DNA of 40,821 nucleotides from Stramenopiles sp. TOSAG23-3 (taxonomy: Eukaryota): NCBI GenBank assembly GCA_900128585.1, contig LT642180.1, positions 1-40,821 on the forward strand, written 5' to 3'. The notes under the pieces are model-generated. The model was not told where the DNA came from. It did not search any database and saw only the letters and a program-made list of their open reading frames with translations. Positions 5,504-35,401 of the stretch are shown here, piece after piece. A program made the translations under genes and the position numbers. Position 1 is the stretch's first letter. Every line of letters begins with the position of its first letter.

Positions 5504-5574
5504 GTATTTTACAAAAAAATTACGAGAGTTAAGAAAATTAAAAATGTATCTTTGTGTTTCTGACATTAAAAAAT

Positions 5575-5595
5575 AAATTGGCTGTTATTTAAGTA
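5575..5595 (-). repeat. Convergent-gap micro-element copy (AAATAACAGCCAATTT core)
   Basis: aaattggctgttatttaagta is the exact reverse complement of 28926-28946; it lies between direct repeats tctgacatta (5559-5568 / 5619-5628). Confidence 0.85.
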
Positions 5596-5639
5596 GTTAA
5601 ATTTTATCGTCAGACATGTCTGACATTACCGTGCTTCAT

Positions 5640-6749
5640 TTACAATTCGGTATGGCTGTTGACCCAGTCTTCGGCGCGATAGCGCTTTATGCGCTTGCTT
5701 TTCTCAAGGCTTTTCGTGATTGCCACGAGAAGAGAGTCACTGTCTTTTTGGCATGTCCGTTGATGGGTTGTATCCTCACGGGGCACAGGCTTTAACCTAC
5801 AGTCTTGTCCAATCTCCCAAATCATCAATCCACCGATGCCTTTCTCCAGTGCCATAATGGATTTCTTTACAATCGTTTCGACACTATTAAAGCCAATATT
5901 ATTCACAATATCGACCCCAGGCTTCAATGGTGAATGCTTGTGTAGAATGTCTTCATACGTTGTCCATTCACCTCGCCCGTCTCTTCCGTAAAAGGGCACA
6001 CCAAGGGTCAACTTGGCAGCGGGCAAGCCAATCTCAATCCCCTGGTCAACAGATTTTTCCGCAAAGGCATAGCTAGAGTGCTGCGCTCCATGTTGATCGT
6101 ACGTCATCATATGCATAAAATCTGCATATTTATGTGCATTTAACGTTTTAAATAGATTTTCTTGTCTACCGTCCGGGTAGTACGCAAGCGTGATCTCCAG
6201 GCGGCGACCAGAGGTTGCATCTTTGGAATACTCGTCAAACACTGCCCTGGTTTCCTTTAACAAACTGAGAAGGCCCTGGTAATCTTTATCGACAACGTCT
6301 GTGTCAGAGTAACCGCTGGAAAAGCTATACCCTGGGTATTCCCAGTTGTAATCCACACCATCAAGGCTGTATTTAACAATATAACCCATTAGTGACGAAA
6401 TGAATTTTTTCCTTGACTTTCGGGACGATACCATTCCCGAAAAGCCAGCCGACCTCCCGTTTCCACCGAAGCACAATAGGATTTTTGAGCCGTGTCTACG
6501 GGCGGCAGTAGTAGCCTCTCCCATCAACTCCTTTCTAGGAAACCTGTCCCTTGCCGTTATTTTACCGCTAGACGTCATTTCCAAGGAAAATAAGATAATA
6601 TGGCTGACATGCCGAGACACGACATCCCAATTTACCGCTTCATACCTCCATTCTGGCAAATACCCAAAAATCCTGAACGAAGAAGCCTCCAGCGCAGACA
6701 CAGAAATGGCAAGCAAACTATTCAACAAAAATATCAAACGGGCGCGCAT
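5640..6749 (-). CDS. Glycoside hydrolase family 18 (chitinase-like) with signal peptide and C-terminal HTEL
   Basis: Hydrophobic N-terminus; GYLPEW, KILLCFGG, LDGVDYNWEYP, MMTYD, KLTLGVPFYGR, GGLMIWEIGQD. Confidence 0.93.
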   Translation of the reverse strand: MRARLIFLLNSLLAISVSALEASSFRIFGYLPEWRYEAVNWDVVSRHVSHIILFSLEMTSSGKITARDRFPRKELMGEATTAARRHGSKILLCFGGNGRSAGFSGMVSSRKSRKKFISSLMGYIVKYSLDGVDYNWEYPGYSFSSGYSDTDVVDKDYQGLLSLLKETRAVFDEYSKDATSGRRLEITLAYYPDGRQENLFKTLNAHKYADFMHMMTYDQHGAQHSSYAFAEKSVDQGIEIGLPAAKLTLGVPFYGRDGRGEWTTYEDILHKHSPLKPGVDIVNNIGFNSVETIVKKSIMALEKGIGGLMIWEIGQDCRLKPVPREDTTHQRTCQKDSDSLLVAITKSLEKSKRIKRYRAEDWVNSHTEL

Positions 6750-7388
6750 GCTGCTGCTGTTGTGGAAGAAAGCAAAGTTCTCAAAAACAAGAAATTGAAA
6801 AACCGACTAAGCTTGAATTATAAACAATATTCCTCTATACATTGACCACGACGTCATACAGTCATTTGCATGGAAGAGTCTTTTTACAATTCATATACTT
6901 GTACCAACATTCAACCAGAAGAAGAAAGGGAAAAGCGATTTTTCACAATCGCGCGTGGAGAGGAGAAGTAAGAGGTATATAATAATATTAATCGGGTTCG
7001 TCGTCGTTACTACTACTCTCTACCGTAGTTATATATTACCGCAAATATTCCATTATAAGTTATTTATTAGACGACTACTATTTATTATTATAAAAATACT
7101 ACAGACCACCACAGCAGTAACAGCCATGTGGTGATGTGATGATGATGATAATATATTTTGATGATGAATAATTGATTGTTGAAATTGAGAAGATATATTA
7201 TTATTATTTATTATTTATTATTTATTAGACGACTAAAATCAATCTTATTAAATCTGTCCTACGAGATCAAAATTCAACAAAGAATGATAAATAAAATGCT
7301 GCGAGTCAGTTTTCTCTGATTCCTGTGTAGATTAAATATTTTTCTCAGGGAAAAGCACATCGCGGCAGATTTTAGAGCTCTTGCGCCA

Positions 7389-8345
7389 ATGGAAATCAAT
7401 TTGCCTGTAATTGATCTTCGCTTGGAAGATTCGGAGGTGGCTAAGAGCCTTGGCCTCGCGTGCTCAGAGAGTGGATTCTTTGTCGTCACCAATCATGGCG
7501 TGCCTCCTGAGCTGATGAAAGGAGTTTATCGGTGTATGGTGGATTTCTTCTCCTTAAGTGAAGAACAAAAGTTTACTGCCCTCGTAAATAGCAGTAACCG
7601 TGGATTTACGCCTTTCAAGGAAGAGAAGCTGGACGTTGAAAACCAGACGACTGGGGATACCAAGGAAGGATATTACATTGGGAGGTCAGTTTCGTCGGAA
7701 GAAGTACGAAAGTTTCCACACCCCCTTCAGGGAGAGAATGTGTGGCCCGATGAGGAAAAGTTAGGATTAAAGAAGTGGAGGGAGACAATGGGGAAATATT
7801 TTGAACAAATGCACGTATTAGGAATGAAATTGCTACGCTTGGTGTCCATGAGCCTGAACTTGTCGGAAGACTATTTCAACGAATCGTTTACGCGTCCCAT
7901 GGAGACTTTACGCCTTTTGAAGTATGGTCCAGACCAGAGTGTTCCCGATGCAGGCGTCTTTGGATGCGGTGCCCATACAGATTACGGCATGTTGACGTTG
8001 CTGTCAACGGACAGCATCCCAGGTCTGCAAATTTACGACAGCAGGAAGGAACAATGGATCAGCGTCGTCCCCAGACCAAGCGATTTTATCGTCAATATTG
8101 GGGACATGCTGGCGCGTTGGACAAATTTCAAATACAAAAGTACCCTTCACCGTGTCGTTAATGTATCAGGAAAGGAGCGGTACTCCATTCCATTCTTTTT
8201 TGAGCCAAACTTTGAGGCAGTAGTCACATGCTTACCCTCCGTGCTTGGGGAGGACGAGGTGGCGGTGCACCCTCCCGTAATTTTCGGAGAACATCTCTTA
8301 AAAAAATTAACGTCTACCCACGACTTGCTCAGCGAAAAGTCCTGA
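7389..8345 (+). CDS. 2-oxoglutarate/Fe(II)-dependent dioxygenase (DIOX_N + 2OG-FeII_Oxy, IPNS-like)
   Basis: LPVIDL, ACSESGFFVVTNHGV, HTDYG (HxD), VNIGDMLARWTN, STLHRV, RYSIPFF (RxS). Confidence 0.95.
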   Translation: MEINLPVIDLRLEDSEVAKSLGLACSESGFFVVTNHGVPPELMKGVYRCMVDFFSLSEEQKFTALVNSSNRGFTPFKEEKLDVENQTTGDTKEGYYIGRSVSSEEVRKFPHPLQGENVWPDEEKLGLKKWRETMGKYFEQMHVLGMKLLRLVSMSLNLSEDYFNESFTRPMETLRLLKYGPDQSVPDAGVFGCGAHTDYGMLTLLSTDSIPGLQIYDSRKEQWISVVPRPSDFIVNIGDMLARWTNFKYKSTLHRVVNVSGKERYSIPFFFEPNFEAVVTCLPSVLGEDEVAVHPPVIFGEHLLKKLTSTHDLLSEKS

Positions 8346-8625
8346 TGATTTATGCTGCAGCGGCGAGGGATGTTGTTGCGCATATTTCATGTGTTTACTG
8401 CAACCAGTGTACGAATTATTGGTTTTGGTACAAGATCGTACGATTCTTACGATACGCTAAAATGTAGTCCTGTTTATATCATGCTAGAGTAAATGGTGGT
8501 GGTGTTTCTTAAAGCAATTATTGATTTTGAGAATTCATGTGGCCCTCAATATTCTTACGCATCATATTGTTTTGTTTTAAATTTATTTTAGTGCTCTCAA
8601 GTACACACACATCATTTTTTAAAAT

Positions 8626-8787
8626 CAAGAAAATTGGCTGTTATTTAAAGTAATTTATAAAATTAAAACAAGAAGAAAATTGGCTGTTATTTAAAAACAA
8701 AAAAATAATTGGCTGTTATTTCAGCAATTAAAAAAAACAAATTATATAGTATGTTTTATAACAGCCAATTTTCTTGTTTTTGTTTTA
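8626..8787. repeat. Cluster of four micro-element copies (three on -, one on +)
   Basis: aattggctgttattt within 8626-8646, 8673-8692 and 8707-8721; taacagccaattttcttgtttt at 8759-8780 flanked by tgtttta direct repeats. Confidence 0.9.
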
Positions 8788-8809
8788 AGACTCTCATTTT
8801 AAATCAATT

Positions 8810-8887
8810 GTGTACTTTTAAGACCAATCAATTGGAATCTTGACCAGAACTTGGGGAGGATCTGCAATAGGAGGAGACATTGTTCTT
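8810..8887 (+). repeat. Dispersed ~80-bp repeat, copy 1
   Basis: 58 bp identical to 28783-28840 (gtgtacttttaagaccaatcaattggaatcttgaccagaacttggggaggatctgcaa), then similar with small indels to ...ttgttctt. Confidence 0.92.
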
Positions 8888-9022
8888 ATTAGATTTTAAG
8901 TAATAAAAAAAATTATCTTTCCTCATGCACCGCGTAATTTAATCTCCACAAAAAAAAGTTATTTTTTGTCTTTGAATTACACCCCGACAAATTGCATCTT
9001 TATAATCGAGCACAAGGCCACC

Positions 9023-10603
9023 CTACCCTCTCCCCGTACGGTACCCTACTCTCGGCTGCCCTCTCCAATTTGCGGAGGCTTTCCTCCCCAATGGCATTTT
9101 TTTCTTCTTCCCTTGGTACCCTCTATTGCGACCGTTTTGTACAGACGTTGTAGGCGAAACAATTTGCTTTGGGGCAGCTGCGGCTTGGATTTTCCCCATT
9201 TGCTGTTGGTACTGGTGTTGGTTGTTAAATACCACAGGCACAAACGGCTCTATCGTGCTGGTCAGTTGGTCTATTTTTTCGCTCATCACGTTCAACTCAT
9301 TTAAGAATACATAAAACATTCGACCATCTCTTTTCTTGTGCTTAAGAATGCTGCAAGCCATCTCAAGGGCTGTAAGGGCGCGCTGACGCTCCGCTCGTGC
9401 CTGTGATAGTTCGTGCACCAGCCGACCATTTTGCTTCTCTTTGTAGGCGACAGATTGCTCTACTTTGATCCGATGTTTCATATTCCGTAGATTGGCCTGT
9501 TTCTCCTTTATTTCTGATACTGCGGCACTCCAAGCGTCCATTGTGGCACGATTGTCCTTCAGTTCATCGTTCATCTTTTTCAAAAGCCCGCGCTTTTTTC
9601 TACTCGCCCCTTTTTCATTTGCAATCTTTATTCTCAAAAATTCAAGGCTTTTCTCCAGCTCCATCAGTTCAGCCACGGACGCCTCGTCTGCGACTTCCTC
9701 CACGGGAATGTCGCCCACCGAAATTTCTTCGATCGGTTCAGGTTCTGGAAATTTTCCGAACTGAATATAGTGCGACTGGGGCTTTGCTGCCGTTCTAGAC
9801 CCTTTCCCTTCAAGGTTCGACCGGCGCGGTCTTGTCATCGCCATCAGTTTGCTCCGCCCTCCAGCAAGCTCGGGCGCGTCGATATGAATTACAACAGACT
9901 TTTTTCTATGTTGAGGGGTATGTTGGGGGCGTTTTTTCGGGGGCGTTCGTTTCACTTTCCTTTGCAACGAGGGACTAAGCTTGCTTTTGCCTTTGCTTTC
10001 GGGTTCTGCACGCGGTTTTAATAGCTTCTTTTCCTCCCTGTTCAATCTGGCGTGTGGAATTTTAGTTTGCTTCTTATGTACAGGAGAGTTTTTACGGTTG
10101 CTGCGCCCTCGATATAGTGCTTGAATTTTGGTTGCTGCGTTCTCCGATTCTACCCATTGCTGAATTCTGTCGTTGTCCTCTTTTAGTTTTCTTTGCGTTT
10201 CCCGCTCGTTTCTCCCCCTTAACCTGGCCTGTATTTTGACAACTGCCGCGCCCTGCTCTTGTAGCAATTTTCTCTCTTTCGCATGATTCGCAGCATTTCT
10301 ACCTTTCTTTCCTCGTTGCAGTGCTTGAATCTTCAATGCCGCCTGCTTTCTCTGCTCGAGTTCAAGTCTGTTTTTTTCTATCATCTCGTTGAACGCTGGA
10401 TCCTCCTCTTCACTTACATCGTCCATTAGGTCTAAATCATACGGCGCGTCTATACCCTCGTCGTCCAAGTCATCAAAATCAAAATTGTCGTTTTCAACGG
10501 CCTCTGCCCCTTGATCGTAATTTTCCACCAGCCCTTCATCCAACTCCAGGGTCCATCCTTCTTCATCACTCGAAACGAGGTTCGTTGAATCATAATCACT
10601 CAT
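9023..10603 (-). CDS. IQ calmodulin-binding motif, coiled-coil protein
   Basis: Three IQ motifs (IQALQRGKKGR, IQARLRGRNER, IQALYRGRSNR), acidic N-terminus, C-terminal coiled coil; 526-aa ORF. Confidence 0.8.
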   Translation of the reverse strand: MSDYDSTNLVSSDEEGWTLELDEGLVENYDQGAEAVENDNFDFDDLDDEGIDAPYDLDLMDDVSEEEDPAFNEMIEKNRLELEQRKQAALKIQALQRGKKGRNAANHAKERKLLQEQGAAVVKIQARLRGRNERETQRKLKEDNDRIQQWVESENAATKIQALYRGRSNRKNSPVHKKQTKIPHARLNREEKKLLKPRAEPESKGKSKLSPSLQRKVKRTPPKKRPQHTPQHRKKSVVIHIDAPELAGGRSKLMAMTRPRRSNLEGKGSRTAAKPQSHYIQFGKFPEPEPIEEISVGDIPVEEVADEASVAELMELEKSLEFLRIKIANEKGASRKKRGLLKKMNDELKDNRATMDAWSAAVSEIKEKQANLRNMKHRIKVEQSVAYKEKQNGRLVHELSQARAERQRALTALEMACSILKHKKRDGRMFYVFLNELNVMSEKIDQLTSTIEPFVPVVFNNQHQYQQQMGKIQAAAAPKQIVSPTTSVQNGRNRGYQGKKKKMPLGRKASANWRGQPRVGYRTGRG

Positions 10604-11477
10604 GCTGTACCAAGGAACACGAGGCTCTTATGCAGAACGACCACGCGCACACTTTCGTGTTTGCAGTAAATGTAAATGAAAACAAAATCATCATTACATG
10701 AATAATTCAACCTTTGATTATAAAATATTACAAACCTTATATAGAAATATAAATTCACTCAAATATTTTTCGTTGTGCTTGGTATACTTGGTATAGTAGT
10801 TGTATATATATTTAAATACAAAAGTAACGGGTAGAAATAGACACACTATCTATTAATTATAAATAAATAAATAACGAGTCAGGAGTCAGGAGTCAAGCCG
10901 CCACATTATATCTTAGTTAAGAAGAAGAAGAACAAATCTATTTTTAAATTCTCTTTTTTTTTGCTTAAATATTATAGTAGTGCCACTTATTGGCACTTAT
11001 AGGCACTTAAGACTAGTTATATAATAATTAGACTAGACTAATTTCCGAGTCGTCTTCTCTTTAAATGTTTCTTTCCTTCTTTTTGTTCTTGTCAACGATA
11101 TTGTTTCCATAGTGCCCTTTGATAAAGGTGTATATTGTACAGTACTTGTATAATCATTTCATTATTCTAAATAATGAGTATTCCTATCTAATCTATATAT
11201 TTCTTTTTTTTAAATTTTATTTAGTCCTCGTATAATAATAATAATACTTCTTCTTTTTTTTTTATAATAATATTATAATTCATATTATAATATTATTTTT
11301 CAATAATAATTATAAAAAAAAAATTGTTGATTCTTGTTGTTTTTGACTTTTCTTTGTTGGTGAACTTTTCTTATTCGACAATAAGTAAAAATGCATCGCG
11401 CGTTTTGTGTATAATGATTATCCTCAAATAATTTGTCACGTTTTAAACCACTGTCATCCCTGTGTCGTGATTGAATC

Positions 11478-14281: not shown

Positions 14282-14595
14282 ACCTGCAGGTAAACACAGC
14301 ACACTGTTGTCGTTTAGTCGCACTACATTTGTTCACGAGGAGGGAAAATTTTCTAAATTTAACTTAAGTTTTAAAAGGTTTTGTCAGTTTAATGATTCAA
14401 CGTATACTCCGTTGCTCTTTTCAAGTTAAGAAGAAAGAGAAACATTTTAGATATTAATTCAAATTTGTTTTTTTATAATTCAAATTTAAGTCCCTCGATA
14501 TTGAAAAAACACTCTCTGTGGGTTGATTTGAAATGCGTTCTGCCTCTCCGTACGAAAAGTGAACCAAGTACTTAGTAGTTGTTAGTATCATAAAT

Positions 14596-14615
14596 CTTAA
14601 ATAACAGCCAATTTT
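14596..14615 (+). repeat. Convergent-gap micro-element copy
   Basis: cttaaataacagccaatttt. Confidence 0.85.
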
Positions 14616-14760
14616 TCGGTGCTAAATTTTTTGTGTTTCAATTGATATCTGAAATTTAAATTAACTTTATATCTCAAAATAGTTATACACACAAGCCGAA
14701 AACGAATTCCCCCTGCTCCAGCAAGGCAACAAGTCTCTCATCTCATTCTGATAAACTTGA

Positions 14761-16511: not shown

Positions 16512-16792
16512 TGTATCCTGTTCGCTCGTAGTTTATCTCTCTCTCTCTCTCTGAATTTAGTCGTGTATGAAACGATTACTTTACTTACTGAAATGAAAAA
16601 ACTTCCGGGGTGTGAAAGGCACTTCGTATCAGTCTTCAATACTTATGTTATACATGTAAATGCCCGGCACGAAATCATATGAATCGTGTTTGTTAGTTTT
16701 GTTTGTGATAATAAATTAATAATAATAATAAAAAAAAAAATACAGTAATAATAATAAAAATTAAAAAAAAAAGAGAAGAACAACCTACCAGG

Positions 16793-16870
16793 AGAAGAAG
16801 AGAGTGAAGAAAGAAGAAGAAGAAGAAGAAGAAGAAGAAAAAAAGGGAAGAAGAAGGAGGCGAGAAGAAG
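16793..16870 (+). repeat. (GAA)n-rich purine tract
   Basis: Direct inspection. Confidence 0.85.
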
Positions 16871-17261
16871 GGGTAGTAAAATAAAATAACAACATTTATA
16901 TGCTATGATGATGTATTTTATAAAATGATTTTGATGCGCAACTCAATCGGGTCAATGAACAGGACAGAGCATTGATTCCAATAAAAATATATTGATTTGC
17001 GCGGGATTTAACAACAACCAATTTATATTTATAATTTGTATACATTTTATGACAGCCTATAAAATGAAATCAATTGGAAAGAATCAAAGAGTATGGATAT
17101 ATAAACGATGGAATTAAATGACGTAATATAGTACTATGTATTAATATTTACAAGTACAATATTGTTTGTACTTTTTTGTTATATTTTAATATTTACCTAA
17201 GCTATAATGATATAAACAACTGATGCGATGCTGTCCCCTGTGTGGTGCTTCAAATCAATCA

Positions 17262-17398
17262 CTTCCTTCTTCTTCTTTCTTCTTCTTCTTCTTCTTCTTC
17301 TTCTTCTTCTTCTTCTTCTTCTTCTTCTTCTTCTTCTTCTTCTTTTTCTTCTTTCTTTTTCTTCTTCTTCTTCTTCTTCTTTCTTCTTCTTCTTCTCT
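17262..17398 (+). repeat. (CTT)n microsatellite / pyrimidine tract
   Basis: Long near-perfect CTT run. Confidence 0.95.
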
Positions 17399-17749
17399 CA
17401 TGCTGTGTTTTTGTTTGTGTCAAGGGATCTCACCACAGCATCATCATCACTATTATTATTATTAAAAAAAATAATAATATAGACGACTACTGGTACAATA
17501 ATTTTAGTCTAGTCGAGACTAAAAAAATAATAATATAATAAAAAAAAGATATAATAAAATGTATTTACTATATATAATGCAAAGATGTTGAATAAATAGT
17601 AAAGGAAAAATCGGATTACTTGCCCGCGTGACACAAGCGGTGAATCAATCACCAAGTAAACAATTTCTAATTTTCCACCCCTTTCGCCGTTGGGGTAGTT
17701 GAGGGTCTGTTGACGACGAGAGTGTTTAGACGTGTTGCAAGCAAGCACG

Positions 17750-18550: not shown

Positions 18551-18586
18551 TACCTTGTACCGGTATTATACCTTGTACCGGTATTA
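18551..18586 (+). repeat. Exact 18-bp tandem duplication
   Basis: taccttgtaccggtatta x2. Confidence 0.9.
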
Positions 18587-20465: not shown

Positions 20466-20789
20466 TCACGACATTTTATCAACCTTATCTTTATGGACAA
20501 ATTGTGCAGCAACCTGTCCAACCACCAAACCACCAATATACAAGGCACCAGATAAAGCCAAGACCAAAACACCGAAAGAAACATTGGGGTGTGCTTCTAC
20601 CCAATCTTTTACTAGGCCGTGTTTGCAGTGGATATAGTAACCCCCTTGAAACGAGCACGACTTTCCTTCGGGACAAAAAATACCTGCAGTACAATCAAAC
20701 TCGATCGGACTAGGGTATGCAAGATACGGAGAAACAATTCCCAATACAGTTTTTCGGGCCTGTACAAAGTGTCCAACCACAGACTCCAT
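20466..20789 (-). CDS. Small hypothetical protein with Cys-rich segment and C-terminal TM
   Basis: ATG 20789; CTAGIFCPEGKSC...C followed by hydrophobic VSFGVLVLALSGALYIGGLVVG; GC-rich island between AT-rich spacers. Confidence 0.5.
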   Translation of the reverse strand: MESVVGHFVQARKTVLGIVSPYLAYPSPIEFDCTAGIFCPEGKSCSFQGGYYIHCKHGLVKDWVEAHPNVSFGVLVLALSGALYIGGLVVGQVAAQFVHKDKVDKMS

Positions 20790-21694
20790 GCCCGAGCAAC
20801 GACTTTGGTCGCACTTAAAGTTTAGCAATAGTCACACAAAAAAATCTAGAACAACTGTATATACACCGGACCTATAGACAATAAAATCAAAGTGTACACA
20901 TAACTTCCTTCAGAAAAAGAAGAAAAAAACATATGTGATATGTACAACCCAGATGTAGAAATTGAACCTACATAGTTTATATTTTAACCGACCACGGTTG
21001 ACGACGACGACGATGCGACGAGCGAAGAAGAAAAAAAAAAAAGAAGAAGATCGATCAACACCACCTCCGATCACTGTCGTTTTCCCCCCTTATTTATAAT
21101 TATACTCAAATAGAATTCAATTGTAAATGATCCCTTGGCATAAATGTAGAAATACTATAATAACTAAGATTAAACAGTGAGTAAAATAATAATCAAACTA
21201 ACTTCAAGATTACAATAAATACCTTATATATATAAATAGAATGGAAATAGCGTTGGTGTAATAATTTGTGGTTGTTGGCAAAGGAAGAAGTTTTTAATTC
21301 TCTTCTTCTTCTTCTTCTTCGCGCATTTATTATTATTTTATATATTAGCCTAATATATAATAATAATAATAATAAGAAGAAGAAAGATGATGACATATTT
21401 TATAATATAGACACACCATAAAAACAACAAACTACTCAACAACAAAAATAATTAATAATAAAAAAAAAAAAGTGCGAAGAAGAAGTAGTGATGAGCAAAA
21501 CGCAAGAAGATATTATAGTAGAAGAGGATAATAATAGAATGGACCTTCATTTCTTATTGATGTTTTGACTGTGTTGCTTTAGATTGGTAAGAATGGATAT
21601 CAGAGTAGATATTTTTGTATGTACGATAAGATTTTTTGTGTTTAATTTTGTGGAAGAAAAGCTTGTTGTATAAGTTTAGTTGGAGACTAAGAAG

Positions 21695-26363: not shown

Positions 26364-28742
26364 ATGGGAAACGTCGAGGCGGGCTGCTGTGCAGCCAACC
26401 GGGAAAAACCCAAAGGGAAGCTGAAACCTGGAGATATGGAAAAAGCAATTAAAAACTTTCAAAAAGATCTTTTGAAGGAGTGGAAAGCCACAAACAGAAA
26501 CTCGCACCGGTTTATTTACAAAAAAAACCTGGCTGGTAATATTTGGCCGGAGATTGCATGGGGTTTTATACAACACCAAGCCGGGCTGAACCCGAATTTC
26601 AAAAGAGCTGTGGAGGGCTTGGCATTACGGCCCAATTACCGTACAGTCTATGATCGAAAAATAATGACAGTATCGGAGTTATTGACAGTATTAAATACCA
26701 TCCAGGCCATGTTCATCATAGACAAAGGCAGGTTCAATGGCAAGAACGACACGAATATATTGAATCTTGACTCCGATGTTACCCTGAAATTTCTGGCAAA
26801 TAGTGAAATACTGACGAACTTTGCGATGCTGAATTTTGAAGACTTCGTGCTGAAGCAGTACGGAGATACTGAAAAGAAGTGGTGGAAGATAAATGCAAAA
26901 ATAAAGGACAATCTTCTGAAGGCAACTTCCAAGACGTACCCAGACTGTGGTTCTATACTTTCGGCGAAAATTGAAAAGTTTTTGAAGGCAAGAGACGAGG
27001 ACTACCCTGGCGTGTGCATTGAATTTTTGAATTTCTTGTATTGGAATAAAGATGACTCGACCTGCATCGATGAAGCATACTGCCAGCTGCTCCTTTCTGC
27101 CTCACGCACCACATCTTACAGCGACGGCCAGTTGACGAGAATATGGCGATGCCTTCAACTGTTAGCGCGGTGCCTTGCACCGAAGGAGGAATTAGGACGT
27201 GTGATAATTTCCTGGAGCAAAGAGCTATTGACAATAATGACGGAGCATGCGGGGTATGATTTGCGCGGCGTTATCCCTGAGTTGATCAAGCTATTTTTAG
27301 AAAATTTTCGTTCAGTTTTAAAGTCCGGTTCAAGGACATATTTTCCGTGCACTAATGAAATTGCGACACAGCTCCTGAATGCTGGGCAGCAATCACCACG
27401 ATCGTCTCATATAATGATGCGGCTTTGGTTCAAGAGCGGAGAAACCATTCTTCTGGACATTCCAGACCCGCACTGGACAGCACAGAACGTCATAGACCAC
27501 ATATTGGGCGCTATTGGAATATCGCCAGAAGCTGGACCACTTTTTCACCTTCATTTGATAGGCACAAAAGGCAAGGAGACAAAAGATCAGACCTATACCT
27601 GCGACCTGCCACGAACCGAGTTGTCCTTCAAGCTGCCAGAGGATTATTCAACGGCGCCCGGAACAATTAACGGAAGTGGCTTACCTGAGGACAAGGCCTT
27701 TCTCCACATGTCCAGCAATTCCGATTTTGTGAATGTTCCGTTTCTTCGTCAAAAAGAGCACAGCAAGATTTATAAAAGGTTTGAGTCTCAATTTGGCTTC
27801 ACAAACAACATGGTACAAGGCAGCAATTTCGTGTCTCAGGACGAACAAGGCACAGCATGCAAGCCTTTTGCTCTGGTCGGCGATACTGTCCATCGTACAC
27901 GCACCCTGGACAATGGTGATGTAATTTTGGACTTTCTTGGATACTGCGAAACCATTGAAACCAGCAGGATCAACCCCGACTTTTCGATGCACATTAGCTT
28001 GGAATCGTCAGTTGCGTTAATATTCGACAGAGAGAACGAGGACGAAGTTCGGTTTAAGTTCAACGAAACATTGTGGGATATAATATCTGGGCGATATAAT
28101 TTAGAGATGACAGACGTTGATGCTGTTAGTTTAGCAGCAGTGGCGCTTGTTGCCAAACTTGGACCCTTAAGTTCAATAACCCAACATATTCGAAACAAAA
28201 CAAATCAGGACGACGTCGACATCGAGTCAATACTGTGGAAACAGATCAACATCAATTTGTTCGTACCGAAACCTAAAATCGAGGCTGTAAAGGCAGATAC
28301 AAAAATCGTGATTTCGTGCATAAAAGGCTTGCAGAGAGCGACGAAGCACGAAGCCCGCTTGCTGTACTGGGACTTTTGTGTTAGTAAGTTTTTCCTTTTT
28401 GGTGCCCGTATGTTTACCCTGGACAATATTGAGATAGAAAAAGTCTTCGGGAACCGGGGAAGAGAAATTGCAGGAGACACCAAAAGCAACGTTATGGCAA
28501 TTAGCAAATCTGGTATTATTTTGATAGATGTGGCAAGTGGTTCCATCAGCTACAAGTTTACATATGCGCACATAACGTTTTACGAGGTGGATGGAAATGT
28601 GCTTCGATTTCAGCACAAAATCCTTGATCAAAAGGAGGCACAGAGTAGGTCTTTTTCGCTCAAAGGCCAAGGTCTAGGTCACGCGTTCACACTGTTAGAC
28701 ATGTACTGGAAGAATAGTAATTTAAAGGAAGGCCCGGGCTAG
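26364..28742 (+). CDS. MyTH4-FERM domain protein without motor domain, N-terminally acylated
   Basis: MGNVEAGCC; MyTH4-like IDEAYCQLL...RIWRCLQLLARCLAP...RTYFPCTNEI; FERM-like IISGRY...AVSLAAVAL, FFLFGARMF, MAISKSGIILID. Confidence 0.75.
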   Translation: MGNVEAGCCAANREKPKGKLKPGDMEKAIKNFQKDLLKEWKATNRNSHRFIYKKNLAGNIWPEIAWGFIQHQAGLNPNFKRAVEGLALRPNYRTVYDRKIMTVSELLTVLNTIQAMFIIDKGRFNGKNDTNILNLDSDVTLKFLANSEILTNFAMLNFEDFVLKQYGDTEKKWWKINAKIKDNLLKATSKTYPDCGSILSAKIEKFLKARDEDYPGVCIEFLNFLYWNKDDSTCIDEAYCQLLLSASRTTSYSDGQLTRIWRCLQLLARCLAPKEELGRVIISWSKELLTIMTEHAGYDLRGVIPELIKLFLENFRSVLKSGSRTYFPCTNEIATQLLNAGQQSPRSSHIMMRLWFKSGETILLDIPDPHWTAQNVIDHILGAIGISPEAGPLFHLHLIGTKGKETKDQTYTCDLPRTELSFKLPEDYSTAPGTINGSGLPEDKAFLHMSSNSDFVNVPFLRQKEHSKIYKRFESQFGFTNNMVQGSNFVSQDEQGTACKPFALVGDTVHRTRTLDNGDVILDFLGYCETIETSRINPDFSMHISLESSVALIFDRENEDEVRFKFNETLWDIISGRYNLEMTDVDAVSLAAVALVAKLGPLSSITQHIRNKTNQDDVDIESILWKQININLFVPKPKIEAVKADTKIVISCIKGLQRATKHEARLLYWDFCVSKFFLFGARMFTLDNIEIEKVFGNRGREIAGDTKSNVMAISKSGIILIDVASGSISYKFTYAHITFYEVDGNVLRFQHKILDQKEAQSRSFSLKGQGLGHAFTLLDMYWKNSNLKEGPG

Positions 28743-28782
28743 AAACGCGATGATCTCACATTGATTTAATAATGACACAAGA

Positions 28783-28863
28783 GTGTACTTTTAAGACCAA
28801 TCAATTGGAATCTTGACCAGAACTTGGGGAGGATCTGCAAATAGGAGGTCAGATATTGTTCTT
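28783..28863 (+). repeat. Dispersed ~80-bp repeat, copy 2
   Basis: 58-bp identity to 8810-8867. Confidence 0.92.
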
Positions 28864-28925
28864 GAACTGAGACACCTTCTTTTTTCTTTACTTTTATTAG
28901 AATCAATTTAAGAATTAAATTAATT

Positions 28926-29078
28926 TACTTAAATAACAGCCAATTTTCTTGTTTTTAATTACTATAAAATAACAGCCAATTTTCTTGTTTTATTTTTTTT
29001 TTCTTGTATTTAAGAAGCAATTCATTATTCTCACTCGTTAAATAACAGCCAATTTTCTTGTTTTTATTCTCACTCGTT
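28926..29078 (+). repeat. Cluster of three micro-element copies
   Basis: aaataacagccaattttcttgttt at 28931, 28967 and 29040; the last is flanked by ttattctcactcgtt x2. Confidence 0.92.
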
Positions 29079-29244
29079 TCCTTCTCATATTTAAGCTAAT
29101 GAACCCAGTACACACTCGTTAACTCTCGGTTGACTCATTTTGAAAAGTTTAACATTTTTTACGCCGTAGCTTAAATTTGGTGGGGTGGTACATTTAACCC
29201 CCCCAAGTGTCTTGTAATGTTCTCTCGCCAAGATTGTGGCGGTA

Positions 29245-30663
29245 CTATCTGCCAGATGACGGAGAAATTTTCTTTTTAGTCGCTCGTCGTTTTACGTGCT
29301 TGCTATTGTTCAAGCTTTTTGCCCTGAGCTGAGCCGGGGAAATAACGACCGCCCCTTGCGGCGTGCCCGTCGGTTTACCGTACTTCATATTCATACGGTT
29401 TTTTGCACTACCACTTCTACTGCCCGATCCATTTCTATCACGATAATCTTGATACACTATCGTTTTTCCAGCGTTTTGCATGTTGCTCTTCTGCCGTCTC
29501 TGGTTTGGACTCTGGCTCTTGGATGATGCTTGCTGATCCTTTGGAGGAACAAAACTTTGTTGCTGATTATAAGCATTGGGGTTTGAATACGGCATCGATG
29601 GGGCTGAAAAAGATTGCGGTGCAGAGTATGGCTGAGGGCTAGGATAGGGCGACATTTGTGAATTTTGACTGACACCTTGCTGACCATAAAAGGACGGTGG
29701 TTGCTGCCAGGCCGATTGCTGGGCTGCTGGCATTTGCTGCTGTGGCTGACCCCAAGTGTTGGGGTTCGGAGTTGCCATGTTGGGTGGATTTTGCTGCCAA
29801 CTGCCATTTTGCTGCGCACTTGGACCGCCGTGCTGTTGTTGTTGCTGCTGCTGCTGCTTCGGGTAAAACGATAACGGGGCCGATGAATTAAAAGCGTTTT
29901 GCGGGGCTTGCATTGGCGGGTTACTCGATTTTGGCGAAAAGTAACCTTGGGGCTGGGGTTGTCTTGGCTTCACGGATGCGGACGCAGACGATGGGGCATT
30001 CTTGGCCCCATTTCCACTGTACGGCGGCGGTTGATTTCCCCAGAAGTTCACCGTTTGCTTTTCCGCCACCACCGGGGCACTGAACGAAGTTCGACCAAGC
30101 GTTTGGCTGTCCCCCAAGGCATCGTTGTAATCGCCAATTATGATCGGAACTTCGTTTCGCGGAGAGCCATGGGAGTTAGCGCGTTGCACGCCGTGGCGAG
30201 GGGGGCGACCATTTGGTTGCCCATAGGCATCAAAACCACTCCCTTTTGACCGACCTTTGGGAGAAAACTGCATGCCGTTGTCTCCCTGAAATCCGACACC
30301 ATCACCATCCCCCGAGACCCCTTGCTGCTTTAATTGAATTGTCTTTGCGACGCGGTCCGCACTGTCCAATGCCCTCCGCGAGCGGGCAACTGCATCCAGC
30401 ACCTCTTGGTGTTGCTCGGGTGGGGTTCGACATCTCCACTCAATCGGCAAAAGTTTCGCTTCCTTTTCTGCATCGGCAGTAATACTTCTTCCATTGCCCC
30501 GCACGCGACCAGATCCATTTCCCTTTCCCCTCTTCCCACTCCCACCCCTGCTATTACGACTCGAACGACGGTCACTGCGGTCACCACTGCTGCTATTGTT
30601 TCGCGAGTTGCTAGCCCTTTCACCGCCCGTCCGCTTCGATGATCCACGCGGGTTTTGTCGCAT
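29245..30663 (-). CDS. Hypothetical low-complexity (R/S/G then Q/P/S/N-rich) disordered protein
   Basis: Long ORF from ATG 30663; polyQ and QQP-rich prion-like region. Confidence 0.7.
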   Translation of the reverse strand: MRQNPRGSSKRTGGERASNSRNNSSSGDRSDRRSSRNSRGGSGKRGKGNGSGRVRGNGRSITADAEKEAKLLPIEWRCRTPPEQHQEVLDAVARSRRALDSADRVAKTIQLKQQGVSGDGDGVGFQGDNGMQFSPKGRSKGSGFDAYGQPNGRPPRHGVQRANSHGSPRNEVPIIIGDYNDALGDSQTLGRTSFSAPVVAEKQTVNFWGNQPPPYSGNGAKNAPSSASASVKPRQPQPQGYFSPKSSNPPMQAPQNAFNSSAPLSFYPKQQQQQQQQHGGPSAQQNGSWQQNPPNMATPNPNTWGQPQQQMPAAQQSAWQQPPSFYGQQGVSQNSQMSPYPSPQPYSAPQSFSAPSMPYSNPNAYNQQQSFVPPKDQQASSKSQSPNQRRQKSNMQNAGKTIVYQDYRDRNGSGSRSGSAKNRMNMKYGKPTGTPQGAVVISPAQLRAKSLNNSKHVKRRATKKKISPSSGR

Positions 30664-32090
30664 GATACCGTGTGGTTTATTGTTCTTCCTCAAAAACTGC
30701 CACAGAATTCTTACCAATCTAATTCTTAACACTTCCCTCTACCATTCGCGTAAGTCTTTCATCCCTTTATCCTTGCCCCATAGATTCTTCGTTCATGCAC
30801 AGTGTCGACGTCCATCACAATCAATAAAAGAACGAAACTAGAGCTTCTTCGAGTGCGGATGATATTATAGATACTGTGTTTATGTTAAAATTTAATAGAG
30901 AGAGGATCATTATTATTACAATTATTAATATTACAGCATGATAAATTCGTTACATTAGTATGATTTTATGACTTAGTAAGTGCATAAATATTTATTTTAA
31001 ACTACATCCTTTTAATTGTACTAAGAGTTAATCACGATTCTTCTGCTTTACGTTTAAATATGAATTGTACTAAAATATCTAATTAGATATAATACGTAGA
31101 CGATAAACGACGGCTTGACAAAGAAATGAAAAAAAAAGAGATAGGGGTCCCCCCTTCATTTGCCTGTACCTGGTACCTGTGCCTGTACTGTGTAAATTAT
31201 ATATTTATTTTTTCTTCTTCTGATCGGTTACAAATAGATCTTTTATTTATAGAATTTATTCTATTGTATTCTATCGTTCCTATTAATTACTATGATTTTG
31301 TTTTTCGTTCAAGTTGACAACGCTGTGTGTATATATATATTACTCTGTGGTTTGTTCGGTTCTGTTGATAAAAATTGTTTCAATTTTGTGAATATATCAG
31401 CTATTTATTAACCCTATTTTTAAACATGCATACAATTCTATTATCTCGAGAAGAATCTTCTTTTCTCAAAAAAAAATAATAATAATAATAGAGTTTTATC
31501 CGTTCACCCCATCCAAATGCTGTACCTATGTAAAATGTAAACGAATTAAATTGACACTTATCTCTCCTCGTATTCCGATTATTAGCTGACGACAGTGCTG
31601 TGCTGCCTGCCTCTTCTATCTACCTAAAAAAACAACCCTTCTTTCCTTCTTGTTTTGCTTCTCTTTTTTTTTCTTTTGTTGAGCTCTTCTTCTTCTTTCT
31701 TCTTCTTCTATTATATTATTTTTTTATTCTTTCTTCCTCCACATTCCATCATAATTTTATTATAATTATCATCTCTTTCAACAAATTTCACGCTTAATAT
31801 AATATCTTGAATATAATAAAAAATGGTGCATTACAATCATGGAAGGTTTTCTAGTTGTGGTTTGTCATTACGAAAAACTTAGAAAGCTTAAGTAAGTGGT
31901 GCATTGACAGTAAAAAAGGTTATTTTTAATTTGTATCGCTGTTGTTCTTTCGTGCAAGGTTGCAGAGAGTTTCTAAGCGACCCACTTCACACTTGCGCCC
32001 AGGTAGTTGCGAGAGTGCGACATCGTTTCCTCCTCTCGCGAACGTGAACGGAAGAGTGCGCTTTTGGAGAGTATTTAGAATAGTATCAAA

Positions 32091-33185
32091 ATGCGTATGT
32101 CTGCCCCAAAAAAGAACGGGAGGCCGGAAGATATTATCACGGATCGTGCAGGTGGGTTGGACCTGTACAAGGAATCAGAGTCAACAAAGTGGAGGCATAT
32201 GATAAAGAAAGATGCCGCTATTGATTTGAATAACATTCGGTCTCACATTCGTAGGTTCCGAAACACTCAGCTGATCTCTGATTCGGATTTGTTGATTCAC
32301 GATGCAACTTTATCAAAACCAGCAGCGATGAACGAAGCAGTTTTGGCAGGTGGCAAAGACGCCAAAGTTTTCCCAAAACTTGGGTTAGGTCCAGTAATCC
32401 CAAAGTCTATCAATGCACTAACCCCAGAAGAATTTGAAAAGACCAAAAACTCAATTGGGGGGATTAAAGTAGTCAAAGGCGACAAAATTTCTCAAAAACA
32501 CTTGAAGGCTCGCCTGAAGCGTATGGAAAAAACGCTCAAAATAGTCAGAAAGGAAAGAAAACTGGCAGAAAATGAGCTTAATGGTCTCCAACGTCATTTA
32601 AACTTGCCCATGTCGCCTTCTGCGAACATTTCAGCACCGCCTTCTGGGAGAATAGAAGTTGGGAAAAAGGGAAACATGAATAAAAGTATTAGCACTCCAC
32701 AACTGACAGGAAGATCAAACGCTTTATCAATTACGTCTGCTAGGAAACAAATAATGTCAGCCAGATCAAATGTTTCCAGACGCTCCAACACACCAAATGC
32801 TTCAAACCGTTCGCGACGCTCTTCAAAGAGCAAGCCTCAATACAAAGAGGTAAAGGTTTGGAATAAGAGAACCAAGGTGTGGGAGCCGAAAAAGAGAAAG
32901 ATGGGAAAGTTTGGTTTGCCAGATACTTCAGAATCTTTTCGTAGCCAAAACATCGGGAATCTTTTCATTTCTCCAGATTCTAGGGGAATGACCACCACGA
33001 ATCAAATTGGACTAGTTGCTATTACCGATCTGATCAGACGTGGAGTCGTCGATCCGAACTTGTACTTAAAAATTGACATGCACCAGAAAGACTCTCGGTG
33101 CCCGAAGATTATGTCGCCGATAACAAAGTTTGCAGAACATGCAGTCAGAAATAGATTAAAACCTTTTGCGCTTGGAAGAGGGTAG
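32091..33185 (+). CDS. Hypothetical basic protein with short coiled coil
   Basis: 364-aa ORF with coding-like composition; no family recognised. Confidence 0.7.
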   Translation: MRMSAPKKNGRPEDIITDRAGGLDLYKESESTKWRHMIKKDAAIDLNNIRSHIRRFRNTQLISDSDLLIHDATLSKPAAMNEAVLAGGKDAKVFPKLGLGPVIPKSINALTPEEFEKTKNSIGGIKVVKGDKISQKHLKARLKRMEKTLKIVRKERKLAENELNGLQRHLNLPMSPSANISAPPSGRIEVGKKGNMNKSISTPQLTGRSNALSITSARKQIMSARSNVSRRSNTPNASNRSRRSSKSKPQYKEVKVWNKRTKVWEPKKRKMGKFGLPDTSESFRSQNIGNLFISPDSRGMTTTNQIGLVAITDLIRRGVVDPNLYLKIDMHQKDSRCPKIMSPITKFAEHAVRNRLKPFALGRG

Positions 33186-33489
33186 GCAAACATTATTGAA
33201 TGCAACAAGCGTAGAACGAAAAAGATCTCTATGCAAAAAACAGTTTTTCTAAAATGCATCATGATATACCATCTAAATCTAATATAATTTCGGAAAAAAA
33301 ACAAGTTTTATATGATATCATATAAGTATGTACGTTTTACTGAGAGATATGAAAAAAAACAAATTATATTGTATGCTTTAAGACTCTCATTTTATATTAG
33401 CATTAGTTTTTTTATATAATATGTTTTTTCTTCATATGTTTTCTATAAACTTCTAAAATTCCGTCTCGTTCCAAATATAAACCTACGGA

Positions 33490-33530
33490 TATAACAGCCA
33501 ATTTTCTTGTTTTTATAATTTGTTTTTTTT
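33490..33530 (+). repeat. Micro-element copy with T-rich tail, flanked by 12-bp direct repeat
   Basis: tataacagccaattttcttgtttttataatttgtttttttt between taaacctacgga copies (33478-33489 / 33531-33542). Confidence 0.9.
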
Positions 33531-33535
33531 TAAAC

Positions 33536-35401
33536 CTACGGACTTAAACTTTTACTTTGTAAAGTTGCTGGAGTCACACTTCCGCTCTTAAGAATCATGG
33601 GCAGGTTTTTAGTTTGCCCCTGCTCTCCACTAAATTTCATAGTTGGGTATAATTTTGACAATGTCTCCACAGAGTGCTCTATTTGACGATTCAGAGAGGA
33701 GTTTAGCTTCGGTCTTGGTTGATAAAGAGGTTTTCGGGTTACCATTTGCGTCTCGTTCGATTTCTTACTATTGTTGCTGCTTGGTTTCGGGCTCACTACC
33801 GAGTCCTTGGCTCGGTTCGACGATTTGTTGTACAGGACAGCGCCATCATCTCCAGTACGTTTACCCATTTTGCTCGAGCAATTATTTTTCTTTTTTCGGA
33901 ATCCTCCTTTACGGAATCTTCGGCTTTTCCGTATAGTCGATTTTCTCAGGTCTGCCTGTTTCTTTCTAATTTCGGCTCCCTTTTTTCTGACAGATTCTTC
34001 CGCTTTTTTTTGTCGTTTTAGAACTCGAGCATTGCCGGCTGTTGAGGGGCGCAAATTTCGCAATGCAGACAAGGGGGACCCTGCAGCAGTGGGTGTCGCT
34101 TTCGGAGTCTTTGGCCGCGATTCCTTGAGTAGCTTTATCGGAGATGAATAATGATACAGGGGGTTTCTACAAATTATGGGTTGGACAACGGGTTTCGGCT
34201 TAAAGTGTCCCGGTACTGTGGGAACGAGTCGATTTTTTTTTGCCATCAGTAGCAATCGGTAGCGGTAGTACTCGATGTTTTCCGCAAACGGTGGGAGCGT
34301 TAATCCGTCCCTTCGGACCACACGCTTTACACGGTCATGTTCGTCCATTGCAATTTTTCCACAAAAGAGCAATGCGATATCAATGCTAATAATGTTTTGG
34401 AGAATGTTGACAGCTCCTTCAAAGTAACACTGCGCCTTTCCATCACCACCAGGCTCGCTGGTGTCTTTCAGCCCACGTTTGGCGTTCACACAGAATTTCC
34501 AGCGTCTATCGGGGTCGGAAACGTATTTTTCCAGCATGTTGAAGAGTTCCCGAAACGAATGCTCTTTTGCTTTTGCAGACACAAAATATGTCACAGCATG
34601 CTGAGTCAATAGTTGTCCTGGGGTTACCAATGTATCGTTTATCGTCGCGAAGCCTTCTTCAGTTTGGGTGTCTGCACGCGTTTCCCCAGGCCTTCTCAAT
34701 TTGAAACGGGACCTCCCGAAATTCCAGGGCTGAACCTCCTCGTTGATTCTTCGTACTAGGTGAGTTCCTATTTCGTGCACCGCAAAACTTCTCAAACGGA
34801 CTGGGTTGCGCGGCAATCTAGTGGATACATACAAATAGTGTTTACTTGCAGAGGTATTGGACTTGTCAAAATATTCGTCTGTGCATTTGAACCGCGCATA
34901 GCTAACAGATTTCCTGTTTATAAAAGTACCACTGTTATGCATATCAGCAAACTTTATTTCGCAGTAGCTATCTACCCGTGTTTTGGCCATGTAATCGTTG
35001 AGATAAGCGGACGTCTGCTCTAGAGACCATTCGATATCGTCTTCTGAGCCTTTTTCAGGAAGGTTTCCTTCCAACACATTGCCCTCACCATATCGTTCAA
35101 TTGCGGCCTCCAAAATTCCAATAGCCTCAGGGAGTTTGTCCTGCTGCTGTTCGTGTATCTTCTTCTTAAACATGTCCTTGATTGTCTTCTGCGATATCTT
35201 ATACTCAAATTGTGGGTTGTAGTCATCCGATGCCTCAAACTTCTTAAGTTCTTCTTTAATGTTCTTTGCCAGCAGTTTATGCCTCGGGGCATACGATGAA
35301 GTCTTCACCTTTGGTATTTTCGGAGATTTGTCCGACACATAGTCGTCCGCATAGTCCGCAACATCGTCCGACAAGTCCCACAAATCGCACTCCCGGCACA
35401 T
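33536..35401 (-). CDS. MATCAP: MATCAP/KIAA0895-family microtubule-associated tyrosine carboxypeptidase-like metallopeptidase
   Basis: YNPQFEY, HEIGTH (HExxxH), TEEGFA, SFRELF, RWKFCVNAKRGLKDTSEPGG, QCYFEGA, GKIAMDE; basic C-terminal tail. Confidence 0.85.
   Translation of the reverse strand: MCRECDLWDLSDDVADYADDYVSDKSPKIPKVKTSSYAPRHKLLAKNIKEELKKFEASDDYNPQFEYKISQKTIKDMFKKKIHEQQQDKLPEAIGILEAAIERYGEGNVLEGNLPEKGSEDDIEWSLEQTSAYLNDYMAKTRVDSYCEIKFADMHNSGTFINRKSVSYARFKCTDEYFDKSNTSASKHYLYVSTRLPRNPVRLRSFAVHEIGTHLVRRINEEVQPWNFGRSRFKLRRPGETRADTQTEEGFATINDTLVTPGQLLTQHAVTYFVSAKAKEHSFRELFNMLEKYVSDPDRRWKFCVNAKRGLKDTSEPGGDGKAQCYFEGAVNILQNIISIDIALLFCGKIAMDEHDRVKRVVRRDGLTLPPFAENIEYYRYRLLLMAKKNRLVPTVPGHFKPKPVVQPIICRNPLYHYSSPIKLLKESRPKTPKATPTAAGSPLSALRNLRPSTAGNARVLKRQKKAEESVRKKGAEIRKKQADLRKSTIRKSRRFRKGGFRKKKNNCSSKMGKRTGDDGAVLYNKSSNRAKDSVVSPKPSSNNSKKSNETQMVTRKPLYQPRPKLNSSLNRQIEHSVETLSKLYPTMKFSGEQGQTKNLPMILKSGSVTPATLQSKSLSP

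Follow-up and report, generated by a model that had tools for sequence, protein, structure and literature searches.

Which kind of sequence enters the gaps between gene 3′ ends again and again, in units of about 24 bp? This question is raised by a contig of Stramenopiles sp. TOSAG23-3 (LT642180.1, positions 1 to 40,821), which was analyzed over its full length of 40,821 bp and is referred to here as the window. The 13-mer ATAACAGCCAATT occurs in it in ten exact copies, which a sequence-only reading had taken for a micro-insertion element confined to gaps between convergent genes. We consider it highly probable that the motif is the 3′ terminus of a non-LTR (long terminal repeat) retrotransposon family of an uncultured marine picoeukaryote, and that the micro-copies are products of target-primed reverse transcription (TPRT). 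Within a new and divergent LINE-like (long interspersed nuclear element) family that has a T-tail, and within its non-coding partners, the micro-insertions are the copies with the strongest truncation. We assign the copies to TPRT because their 5′ truncations form a staircase, their T-rich 3′ end is fixed, the duplications around them vary, and a source element is found on the contig L130.

The Motif in the Window

The ten exact cores lie at 5576, 8632, 8678, and 8707 on the reverse strand and at 8758, 14601, 28933, 28969, 29042, and 33491 on the forward strand, and every place and strand given by the sequence-only reading proved exact. When up to two mismatches were allowed, 12 matches were obtained versus 1.88 expected, a number reached in none of 100 shuffles; the two extra matches, each with two mismatches, are probably due to chance. 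A profile of the tail (nhmmer) returned the same ten copies and no others. With open reading frames (ORFs) of at least 150 aa as gene proxies, all ten copies fall into five of the seven convergent gaps, and none was found in divergent gaps, tandem gaps, or the ORFs themselves. The claim that coding sequence is free of copies therefore holds for the window, and it extends to the wider sample described below, where none of 112 classified copies lies in an ORF. As for the gaps, the five occupied ones had been counted correctly, and the total of eight is to be replaced by seven, the eighth probably having come from a 120-aa ORF at 20466–20828. The motif was rejected as a tRNA or small nucleolar RNA gene, as the window contains no tRNA gene and no Rfam family at gathering score, and it was likewise rejected as a simple-repeat artefact.

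The Motif Is the Common End of Longer Repeats

A scan of metagenome contigs with ATAACAGCCAATTTTCTTG yielded at least 120 loci with 823,198 bases and 182 exact cores. After removal of chance matches (L061, L081, and L100) and duplicates (L046, L113, L118, and L081), the counts comprised 182 true copies, including those of the window, for the analysis of gene context and 165 sites for the analysis of flanks. Across the marine metagenome loci, the motif forms the last ~42 nt of longer repeats: the sequence 5′ of it is common to many loci over tens to hundreds of bases and falls into few families, all of which terminate in ...TAATTTTAATTACTTAAATAACAGCCAATTTTCTTGTTTTT. The end of one ORF (...DEEVDYGS...) is present in families A and B, which differ in the 3′ untranslated regions (3′UTRs) that follow it. 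Family C is non-coding, 150–350 bp long, and contains an internal tandem duplication; it has only the last ~42 nt in common with the coding element. This is expected if the reverse transcriptase (RT) recognizes its own 3′ end. A related lineage, called tail-2, ends in a different T-tail, ...CATACTATATAATTTGTTTTTTTT, and accounts for the window segments 8730–8804, 33352–33395, and 40743–40821.

The copies are indeed small, as the sequence-only reading had emphasized when calling them far smaller than short interspersed nuclear elements (SINEs). They are, however, no self-standing unit, and they owe their tiny size to extreme 5′ truncation, the parent elements measuring from 150 bp to more than 3.6 kb. 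The loci gave 244 profile hits, of which 180 had the exact core, 37 one mismatch, and 14 two mismatches, and variant tails recurred; the mismatched cores and recurrent variant tails point to a family with subfamilies and decay instead of one fixed site.

Family C is SINE-like in its behavior. No tRNA-, 5S-, or 7SL-like head, as a Pol III SINE would have, was found in it by the tRNA and Rfam scans of the window or by Rfam at E ≤ 1 on the loci L029, L097, and L001, where the only matches were sub-threshold hairpins at an inverted pair. In L029 (968–1060), head-to-head element copies form such a hairpin, which gave sub-threshold matches to microRNA models (best E = 0.0027).

Anatomy of the Insertions

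The copies of the window and the related element pieces are given below, each with its coordinates, strand, and nature.

5569–5618, reverse strand: 50-bp 5′-truncated copy (core 5576–5588) with a 5′ extension of ~30 nt and the variant tail TTTATTTTTT
5559–5568 and 5619–5628: 10-bp target-site duplication of this copy, TCTGACATTA
8620–8663, reverse strand: copy (core 8632–8644) with a 5′ extension of ~19 nt and the tail TTCTTGATTTT
8664–8692, reverse strand: micro-copy (core 8678–8690) with the tail TTCTTCTTGTTTT, stacked on the tail of the next copy
8693–8722, reverse strand: micro-copy (core 8707–8719) with the variant tail ATTTTTTTGTTTTT
8730–8804, reverse strand: 3′ end of the second lineage, tail-2, ending in ...GAGAGTCTTAAAACATACTATATAATTTGTTTTTTTT and split at 8757/8787 by the 8758 copy
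8758–8781, forward strand: 24-bp micro-copy within the tail-2 copy, with a GTTTT duplication at 8753–8757 and 8782–8786
8810–8887, forward strand: body fragment of the SINE-like, non-coding family C, without tail
14596–14620, forward strand: copy with exact core, degenerate tail TTTTTCGGT, and no recognizable duplication
28783–28993, forward strand: 5′-truncated family C element, the 28969 copy (28957–28993) being its own tail
28897–28956, forward strand: 60-bp copy (core 28933–28945), nested in the tail region of the preceding element (family C)
29040–29065, forward strand: 26-bp micro-copy AAATAACAGCCAATTTTCTTGTTTTT with the duplication ATTCTCACTCGTT at 29027–29039 and 29066–29078
33352–33395, reverse strand: uninterrupted tail-2 copy, the empty-site comparison for the 8758 copy
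33490–33531, forward strand: 42-bp chimeric insertion, made of 25 nt of tail-1 and then 17 nt of tail-2 (ATAATTTGTTTTTTTTT)
33479–33489 and 33532–33542: single duplication of 11–12 bp around this insertion, AAACCTACGGA
40743–40821, forward strand: start of a 3′UTR copy of the tail-2 lineage that runs off the window, 96% identical to L082 6593–6671

Flanking direct repeats, which the sequence-only reading had described, were recovered at 29042 (13 bp unambiguously, 15 bp when Ts of the tail are counted), 33491 (11–12 bp), 5576 (10 bp), and 8758 (5–6 bp). The end asymmetry was seen as well, in that the T-rich right end adjoins the duplication and the left end varies within the window. The 8758 copy has an internal "empty site", as the paralogous repeat at 33352–33395 is intact where this copy interrupts its counterpart. 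Of the two separate micro-copies proposed at 28933 and 28969, the cores are real; the latter is the own tail of a ~150-bp non-coding element, and the former ends a nested insertion. The insertion at 33490–33531 looks like a template switch between two element RNAs within one insertion event. At the 5′ junction of the 5576 copy (5606–5628), a short palindrome of the target, tcagacatgtctga, was observed, which may be a hairpin or inversion formed when the 5′ end was joined.

In the wider sample, the 45 nt that follow the tail were compared with the 600 nt that precede the core in search of exact direct repeats; words common to a whole family were masked, and swapped flanks served as control. Repeats of at least 10 bp were found at 33 of the 165 sites versus 3.7 expected, repeats of at least 12 bp at 19 versus 1.0, and repeats of at least 13 bp at 13 versus 0.2, so that flanking repeats are clearly above chance. 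The duplications are 5–15 bp long and differ in sequence from site to site. The downstream repeat starts 6–12 nt past the core and the upstream repeat lies 0–317 nt before it; the duplication thus encloses body and tail together.

Alignments to the long copy on L023 have scattered start positions and the tail as their common end, and such a truncation staircase was also obtained for families A, B, and C. The truncation points form a continuum from 0 to more than 460 nt. In the 30 best-defined events, the 5′ extension measured at most 10 nt in six, 11–45 nt in eleven, 46–170 nt in nine, and more than 300 nt in four; by ungapped extension, it was shorter than 8 nt at 96 of 167 sites (two later-excluded chance sites included). 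Variable duplications, a fixed T-rich 3′ end, and a truncated 5′ end bear out the TPRT inference of the sequence-only reading.

The first base of the duplication is T in 24 of the 30 events, and the preceding base is A in 15, which fits priming of a U-rich tail on an A-run of the nicked strand. No single specific target, such as ribosomal DNA (rDNA), a spliced-leader gene, a microsatellite, or a small nuclear RNA gene, is shared by the insertions, which have a loose A|T(T)AA-like preference. Three of the 30 insertions (on L010, L022, and L099) lie exactly at the end of an older copy's tail, and another core is present within 70 nt upstream at 22 of the 165 sites; copy clusters are explained by insertion at the ends of older tails. 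Copies are single or stacked at irregular spacing (27–111 nt), each with its own flank, and no head-to-tail arrays of one exact unit were seen among the copies examined, a sample that does not include chromosome ends.

A Source Element with Motifs of a Reverse Transcriptase and an Endonuclease

The ORF fragment of the long copies corresponds to the C-terminus of database proteins of 744–851 aa without a Pfam domain. In a library of 1.84 billion representatives, 265 relatives of the ORF were found, and the best 150 of these 265 are all short fragments. A tblastn search led to L130, which carries a single 5′-open ORF of 1191 aa, then a 3′UTR of ~90 nt, and then the tail. The longer source locus suggested by the sequence-only reading is hence at hand. 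L130 itself is a 4.1-kb contig in a bacterial metagenome-assembled genome (MAG) labeled Dehalococcoidia; since it consists almost wholly of a eukaryotic retrotransposon, it is a binning contaminant.

The N-terminal part of the L130 ORF contains the RT motifs B (SRQGTQQGDP) and C (FADD). P0156, a protein of 1087 aa that is 42% identical to the L130 ORF, adds motif A (FPDAKNAFN) to motif B (QGDP) and motif C, which reads YADD in P0156, and 24 of 30 Atlas feature matches lie in RVT_1-bearing clusters. Judged by these motifs, the element probably encodes an RT, so that the enzyme thought to be encoded elsewhere has a candidate in the non-LTR element on L130 and in P0156.

Further downstream, four proteins of 35–42% identity have an invariant C..C..H..C knuckle followed by PH, ED, D, D-V-H-F, and K...Y. 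This order equals that of the R2 endonuclease, described as CCHC / RH / PD / (D/E) / K..KY (PMC4838377). No Pfam domain was found in the endonuclease region. AlphaFold modeled the endonuclease domain with predicted local distance difference test (pLDDT) values of 73–94, the whole models being poor (pLDDT 53.4 and 52.0). The best Foldseek matches in the PDB were type IIF restriction enzymes (Bse634I and SgrAI), cap-snatching endonucleases, and R2 proteins, all non-significant at E ≥ 0.4. A restriction-like endonuclease (RLE) is probably encoded, and the element is probably a non-LTR retrotransposon with an R2-like domain order. Its protein has a long, acidic, Ser/Pro-rich C-terminus, and the ORF is under constraint, with two lineages of 55% identity staying open over 633 aa.

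The enzyme type proposed by the sequence-only reading as an alternative, telomerase-like or Penelope-like, is not borne out: the scanned sequences gave no Pfam or Rfam match to a GIY-YIG domain, a telomerase domain, or a hammerhead ribozyme, and the order of the RT, knuckle, and RLE motifs is of the R2 type. Family C has an internal tandem duplication, but no ribozyme with it.

Copies Accumulate in the 3′ Flanks of Genes

For 70 of the 182 copies, the end of the locus was too close for the gene context to be classified. The remaining 112 comprise 92 in convergent gaps, 19 in tandem gaps, one in a divergent gap, and none in an ORF, a distribution that departs strongly from gap length (chi-square 165, p = 1e-36); the loci had been ascertained by the motif and not by gap class. 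The proposed restriction to convergent gaps thus holds for the window (ten of ten), and in the wider sample it gives way to a preference for gene 3′ flanks in general. Copies in tandem gaps lie 66–894 nt from the upstream stop codon and, in 18 of 19 cases, nearer to it than to the start of the next gene. Copies in convergent gaps have the nearest stop at a median distance of 131 nt. The 10th to 90th percentile of the distance to the stop codon spans 52–266 nt, and copies are found almost only ~50–300 bp downstream of stop codons.

With respect to the gene nearest to them, 46 copies are in sense and 65 in antisense orientation (p = 0.09), and one to four copies are present per gap. Copies with intact duplications show the same unevenness (18 convergent, four tandem, none divergent). 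Convergent gaps exceed divergent ones in their density of TTTTAA-type words by a factor of only 1.6, at a similar A+T content, so that composition fails to account for the ~90-fold difference in copy density.

Abundance of the Repeat

Summed contig depth over 28514–29150 reached 6315, 4003, and 3017 in three DNA metagenomes versus ~3–9 for unique sequence, i.e., ~600–1000 times the unique depth. Roughly, this speaks for copies of the order of a thousand, a sign of abundance and not a copy number. Contigs of an RNA metagenome include the repeat as well (summed depth 185 versus ~4), which does not imply independent transcription. Joints and indels listed from the metagenome runs stem from other genomic copies. 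The stretch of the window is itself present in marine metagenome runs of many studies, as well as in small sequencing runs of a single coded organism, from which we conclude that the host is an abundant uncultured marine picoeukaryote.

Further Features of the Window and the Loci

The window is gene-dense, intron-poor eukaryotic DNA with a G+C content of about 40%, and the domains of its ORFs include BEACH/FAN, MyTH4-FERM, Tsr1, GH18, and 2OG-oxygenase. By the sum of the listed parts, about 40–50% of its two longest convergent gaps is element debris. Regions upstream of genes (16760–16870, 17260–17400, 830–930, and 31636–31750) contain long low-complexity runs of AAG/CTT and AAT, which form in part inverted arms 400–490 nt apart and are without element copies.

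The tail-2 lineage, with its T-rich tail ...GAGAGTCTTAAAACATACTATATAATTTGTTTTTT, inhabits the same 3′ gaps and is also found in L082 (5123–6740) and L057 (154–2431). Over ~415 aa, its ORF shows 31–34% identity to P0004/P0155; in L057, it has a frameshift. In L028, the ~3.7-kb region 2800–6540 is a local graveyard in which element pieces of several subfamilies, nested and inverted, form a mosaic. The small ORFs of the repeat-rich loci L028 and L023 have no Pfam domain and are C-terminal pieces of the element ORF, and the ORFs next upstream of copies are host genes.

Several candidates were rejected as element copies. In L121–L125, L061, and L081, the 19-mer lies within one conserved viral gene and lacks a T-tail; L121–L125 are five IMG/VR virus records of 27–147 kb, one of them with terminal repeats. 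Ten of the 11 loci from prokaryote collections were coding or chance matches, leaving L130 as the only element; L100, too, was a match of this kind, lying in a bacterial gene. The contigs L103 and L113 are 99.9% identical and differ by a 1354-bp coding stretch (L103 2997–4350 versus L113 2874/2875) and a 121-bp stretch, either an assembly difference or a deletion. Both stretches are unrelated to the element and were rejected as element polymorphism. The only overlapping pair of loci with true copies, L016/L118 (98.8% identical), has all three copies in both.

Proposed Mechanism and Alternatives

Insertion anatomy, duplications, truncation series, common tail, ORF motifs, and distribution are observations, and from here on we infer the nick site, the mode of priming, and the causes of early termination and of the 3′-flank bias. 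The autonomous member would have one ORF of more than 1191 aa, encoding an RT, a linker, the Cys/His knuckle, a PD-(D/E)xK restriction-like endonuclease, and the acidic Ser/Pro-rich C-terminus, followed by a 3′UTR of 90–190 nt ending in ...TAATTTTAATTACTTAAATAACAGCCAATTTTCTTGTTTTT. The endonuclease would nick the bottom strand at the junction of an A-run and a T-run, and the exposed A-rich 3′ end would pair with the U-rich tail of the RNA and prime cDNA synthesis. Synthesis or 5′ joining would mostly stop very early, giving insertions of the last ~24–70 nt, and a staggered second nick would create the duplications of 5–15 bp. Family C and the sister lineage with the other T-tail would take the same route. 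Template switching would yield chimeric and stacked copies, and older copies would offer a matching priming site at which new ones pile up. The 3′-flank bias may reflect targeting or selection.

One alternative reads the 13-mer as a host cis-element, for example a roadblock terminator bound by a Myb-like or CCAAT-type factor, or a replication origin located between convergent genes, which is kept by selection and beside which repeats insert. The exactness of all ten window cores next to varying tails and the location of 111 of 112 classified copies in 3′ flanks would suit it, and GCTGTTA in the motif includes what we take to be a Myb-type core, a CCAAT being present as well. However, duplications enclose the motif, as at 29040–29065 and elsewhere around units of 22 nt to more than 300 nt, and coding and non-coding repeats alike have it as their constant end. 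The mixed orientation, the variable distance to the stop, the presence of up to four copies per gap, and the decayed and variant copies also speak against such a site, which we regard as highly improbable, though secondary co-option of some copies is possible. Very unlikely, too, is a dedicated RNA template of ~25–45 nt, copied into breaks by a telomerase-like or Penelope-like enzyme, with the longer elements as template-switch chimeras. The crowding of 5′ ends in the few nt next to the core, the two-tail chimera inside one duplication at 33490–33531, and the mere ~42 nt common to different bodies are what such a template would produce. Against it, the junctions of tail and body are constant for each family and continuous with a conserved ORF and 3′UTR, truncation is a continuum, and the enzyme lacks the domain and ribozyme matches named above, just as exact tandem arrays were not seen. 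The short template of the sequence-only reading is thus replaced by the 3′ end of the element RNA and of non-coding relatives sharing its last ~42 nt. We give next to no credence to the view that a DNA transposon or miniature inverted-repeat transposable element (MITE) left the copies as its ends or footprints, with the motif as terminal inverted repeat and solo ends left by abortive transposition. It could draw on the inverted pair 8707/8758 and on eight tail-to-tail and six head-to-head pairs within 70 nt among the 165 sites, but that pair is split by an unrelated tail-2 copy which is intact elsewhere. Moreover, the duplications are not of fixed length, single copies are bounded by duplications of their own, truncation affects one end and leaves the other fixed, and the linked ORF has RT motifs and not those of a transposase.

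Several results weigh against the retrotransposon reading. Pfam scans of the whole L130 and P0156 proteins gave no RT match, and RVT_1 matched the first 229 aa of P0156 alone only below the gathering cut-off (E = 2.9e-4; 21.1 versus 29.6 bits). The RT part has no confident fold in the AlphaFold model, neither of two Foldseek searches gave a fold match at E ≤ 0.001 (the second being without useful match), and no PDB sequence matches were found for the element proteins. A crude regular expression that combined motifs A and C, with motif A required, detected no RT in the 823 kb of loci. All element ORFs are 5′-incomplete, and no complete element with a 5′ end was among the sequences examined. The 120 loci may come from several related strains or species. 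Exact duplications of at least 10 bp are limited to one fifth of the sites, and random truncation predicts a less sharp accumulation of 5′ ends than the one observed. Finally, in the contigs of three DNA and one RNA metagenome runs, contigs end at repeats and none bridges a copy.

Comparison with Known Elements

Human L1, known for 5′ truncation and microhomology priming, has a fixed 3′ end, variable 5′ ends and duplications, and a duplication that starts with the tail base, A; it uses an endonuclease of the apurinic/apyrimidinic (APE) type and a poly(A) tail. The marine element is alike in its fixed 3′ and variable 5′ end and its variable duplications, and its duplications start mostly with its own tail base, T. 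It differs in its far more extreme truncation, its RLE motif set, and its T-rich tail.

Resemblance is also found to RLE LINEs (R2, R4/Dong, NeSL, CRE, Hero, and Utopia), which share the single ORF with motifs of a probable RT, then a Cys/His knuckle, and then a PD-(D/E)xK-type motif set, as well as the lack of a poly(A) tail, the TPRT signatures, and the 5′-truncated copies. The R2 RT performs end-to-end template jumping, which fits the chimeric copy at 33490–33531. R2-type elements are usually site-specific, whereas the marine element is found at hundreds of different target sites with its loose A|T(T)AA-like preference. It is further set apart by its U/T-rich tail, its extreme truncation, its long acidic Ser/Pro-rich C-terminal extension, and an RT too divergent for the Pfam threshold, the comparison being one of motifs and not of clade phylogeny. 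The N-terminal zinc-finger/Myb motifs of RLE LINEs were not seen in the ORFs of the element, all of which are 5′-incomplete. In the endonuclease, PH takes the place of RH and is followed by D, D, and K..(K)Y, by comparison with the R2-type motifs in PMC4838377.

EhLINE1/EhSINE1 of Entamoeba histolytica are likewise a LINE and its non-autonomous partners, housed in the gene-dense genome of a protist; their insertions have duplications and prefer T-rich sites (PMC2996970). The likeness is one of anatomy, and EhSINE1 copies are mostly near full length (451–684 bp; PMC2996970), whereas most copies of the marine element are shorter than 70 bp. Family C, which shares just the terminal ~42 nt with the coding element, resembles "stringent" SINE/LINE pairs and ORF-less LINE derivatives; unlike the former, it has no tRNA-, 5S-, or 7SL-like head that could be found. 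In the full-text articles searched, we found neither this element nor any T-tailed RLE LINE of marine protists described.

Implications

The unusual points of the element are its U-rich tail, its extreme truncation, its near-exclusive location in 3′ flanks, and an RT/RLE protein that is missed by standard profiles. An apparently unprecedented 24-bp mobile unit becomes interpretable as a retrotransposon product and shows how far 5′ truncation can reach. The motif is unfit for annotation as a regulatory site; as a sequence tag, it can help to recognize contigs of this organism mis-binned in bacterial MAGs, like L130. With it, a divergent element with RT and restriction-like endonuclease motifs below Pfam thresholds is placed in an abundant uncultured marine protist. 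The distribution of 92:19:1 among convergent, tandem, and divergent gaps makes the element a candidate for studies in which integration targeting is told apart from selection in a compact genome. A bolder and rather doubtful extension would see a deep, undescribed, endonuclease-bearing non-LTR lineage that primes with its U-rich tail, is directed to termination zones (nucleosome-free 3′ ends or R-loops), and aborts after ~25 nt, so that the 3′ intergenic spaces would be built largely from thousands of micro-copies. On this view, the micro-copies might act as terminators or spacers between convergent genes.

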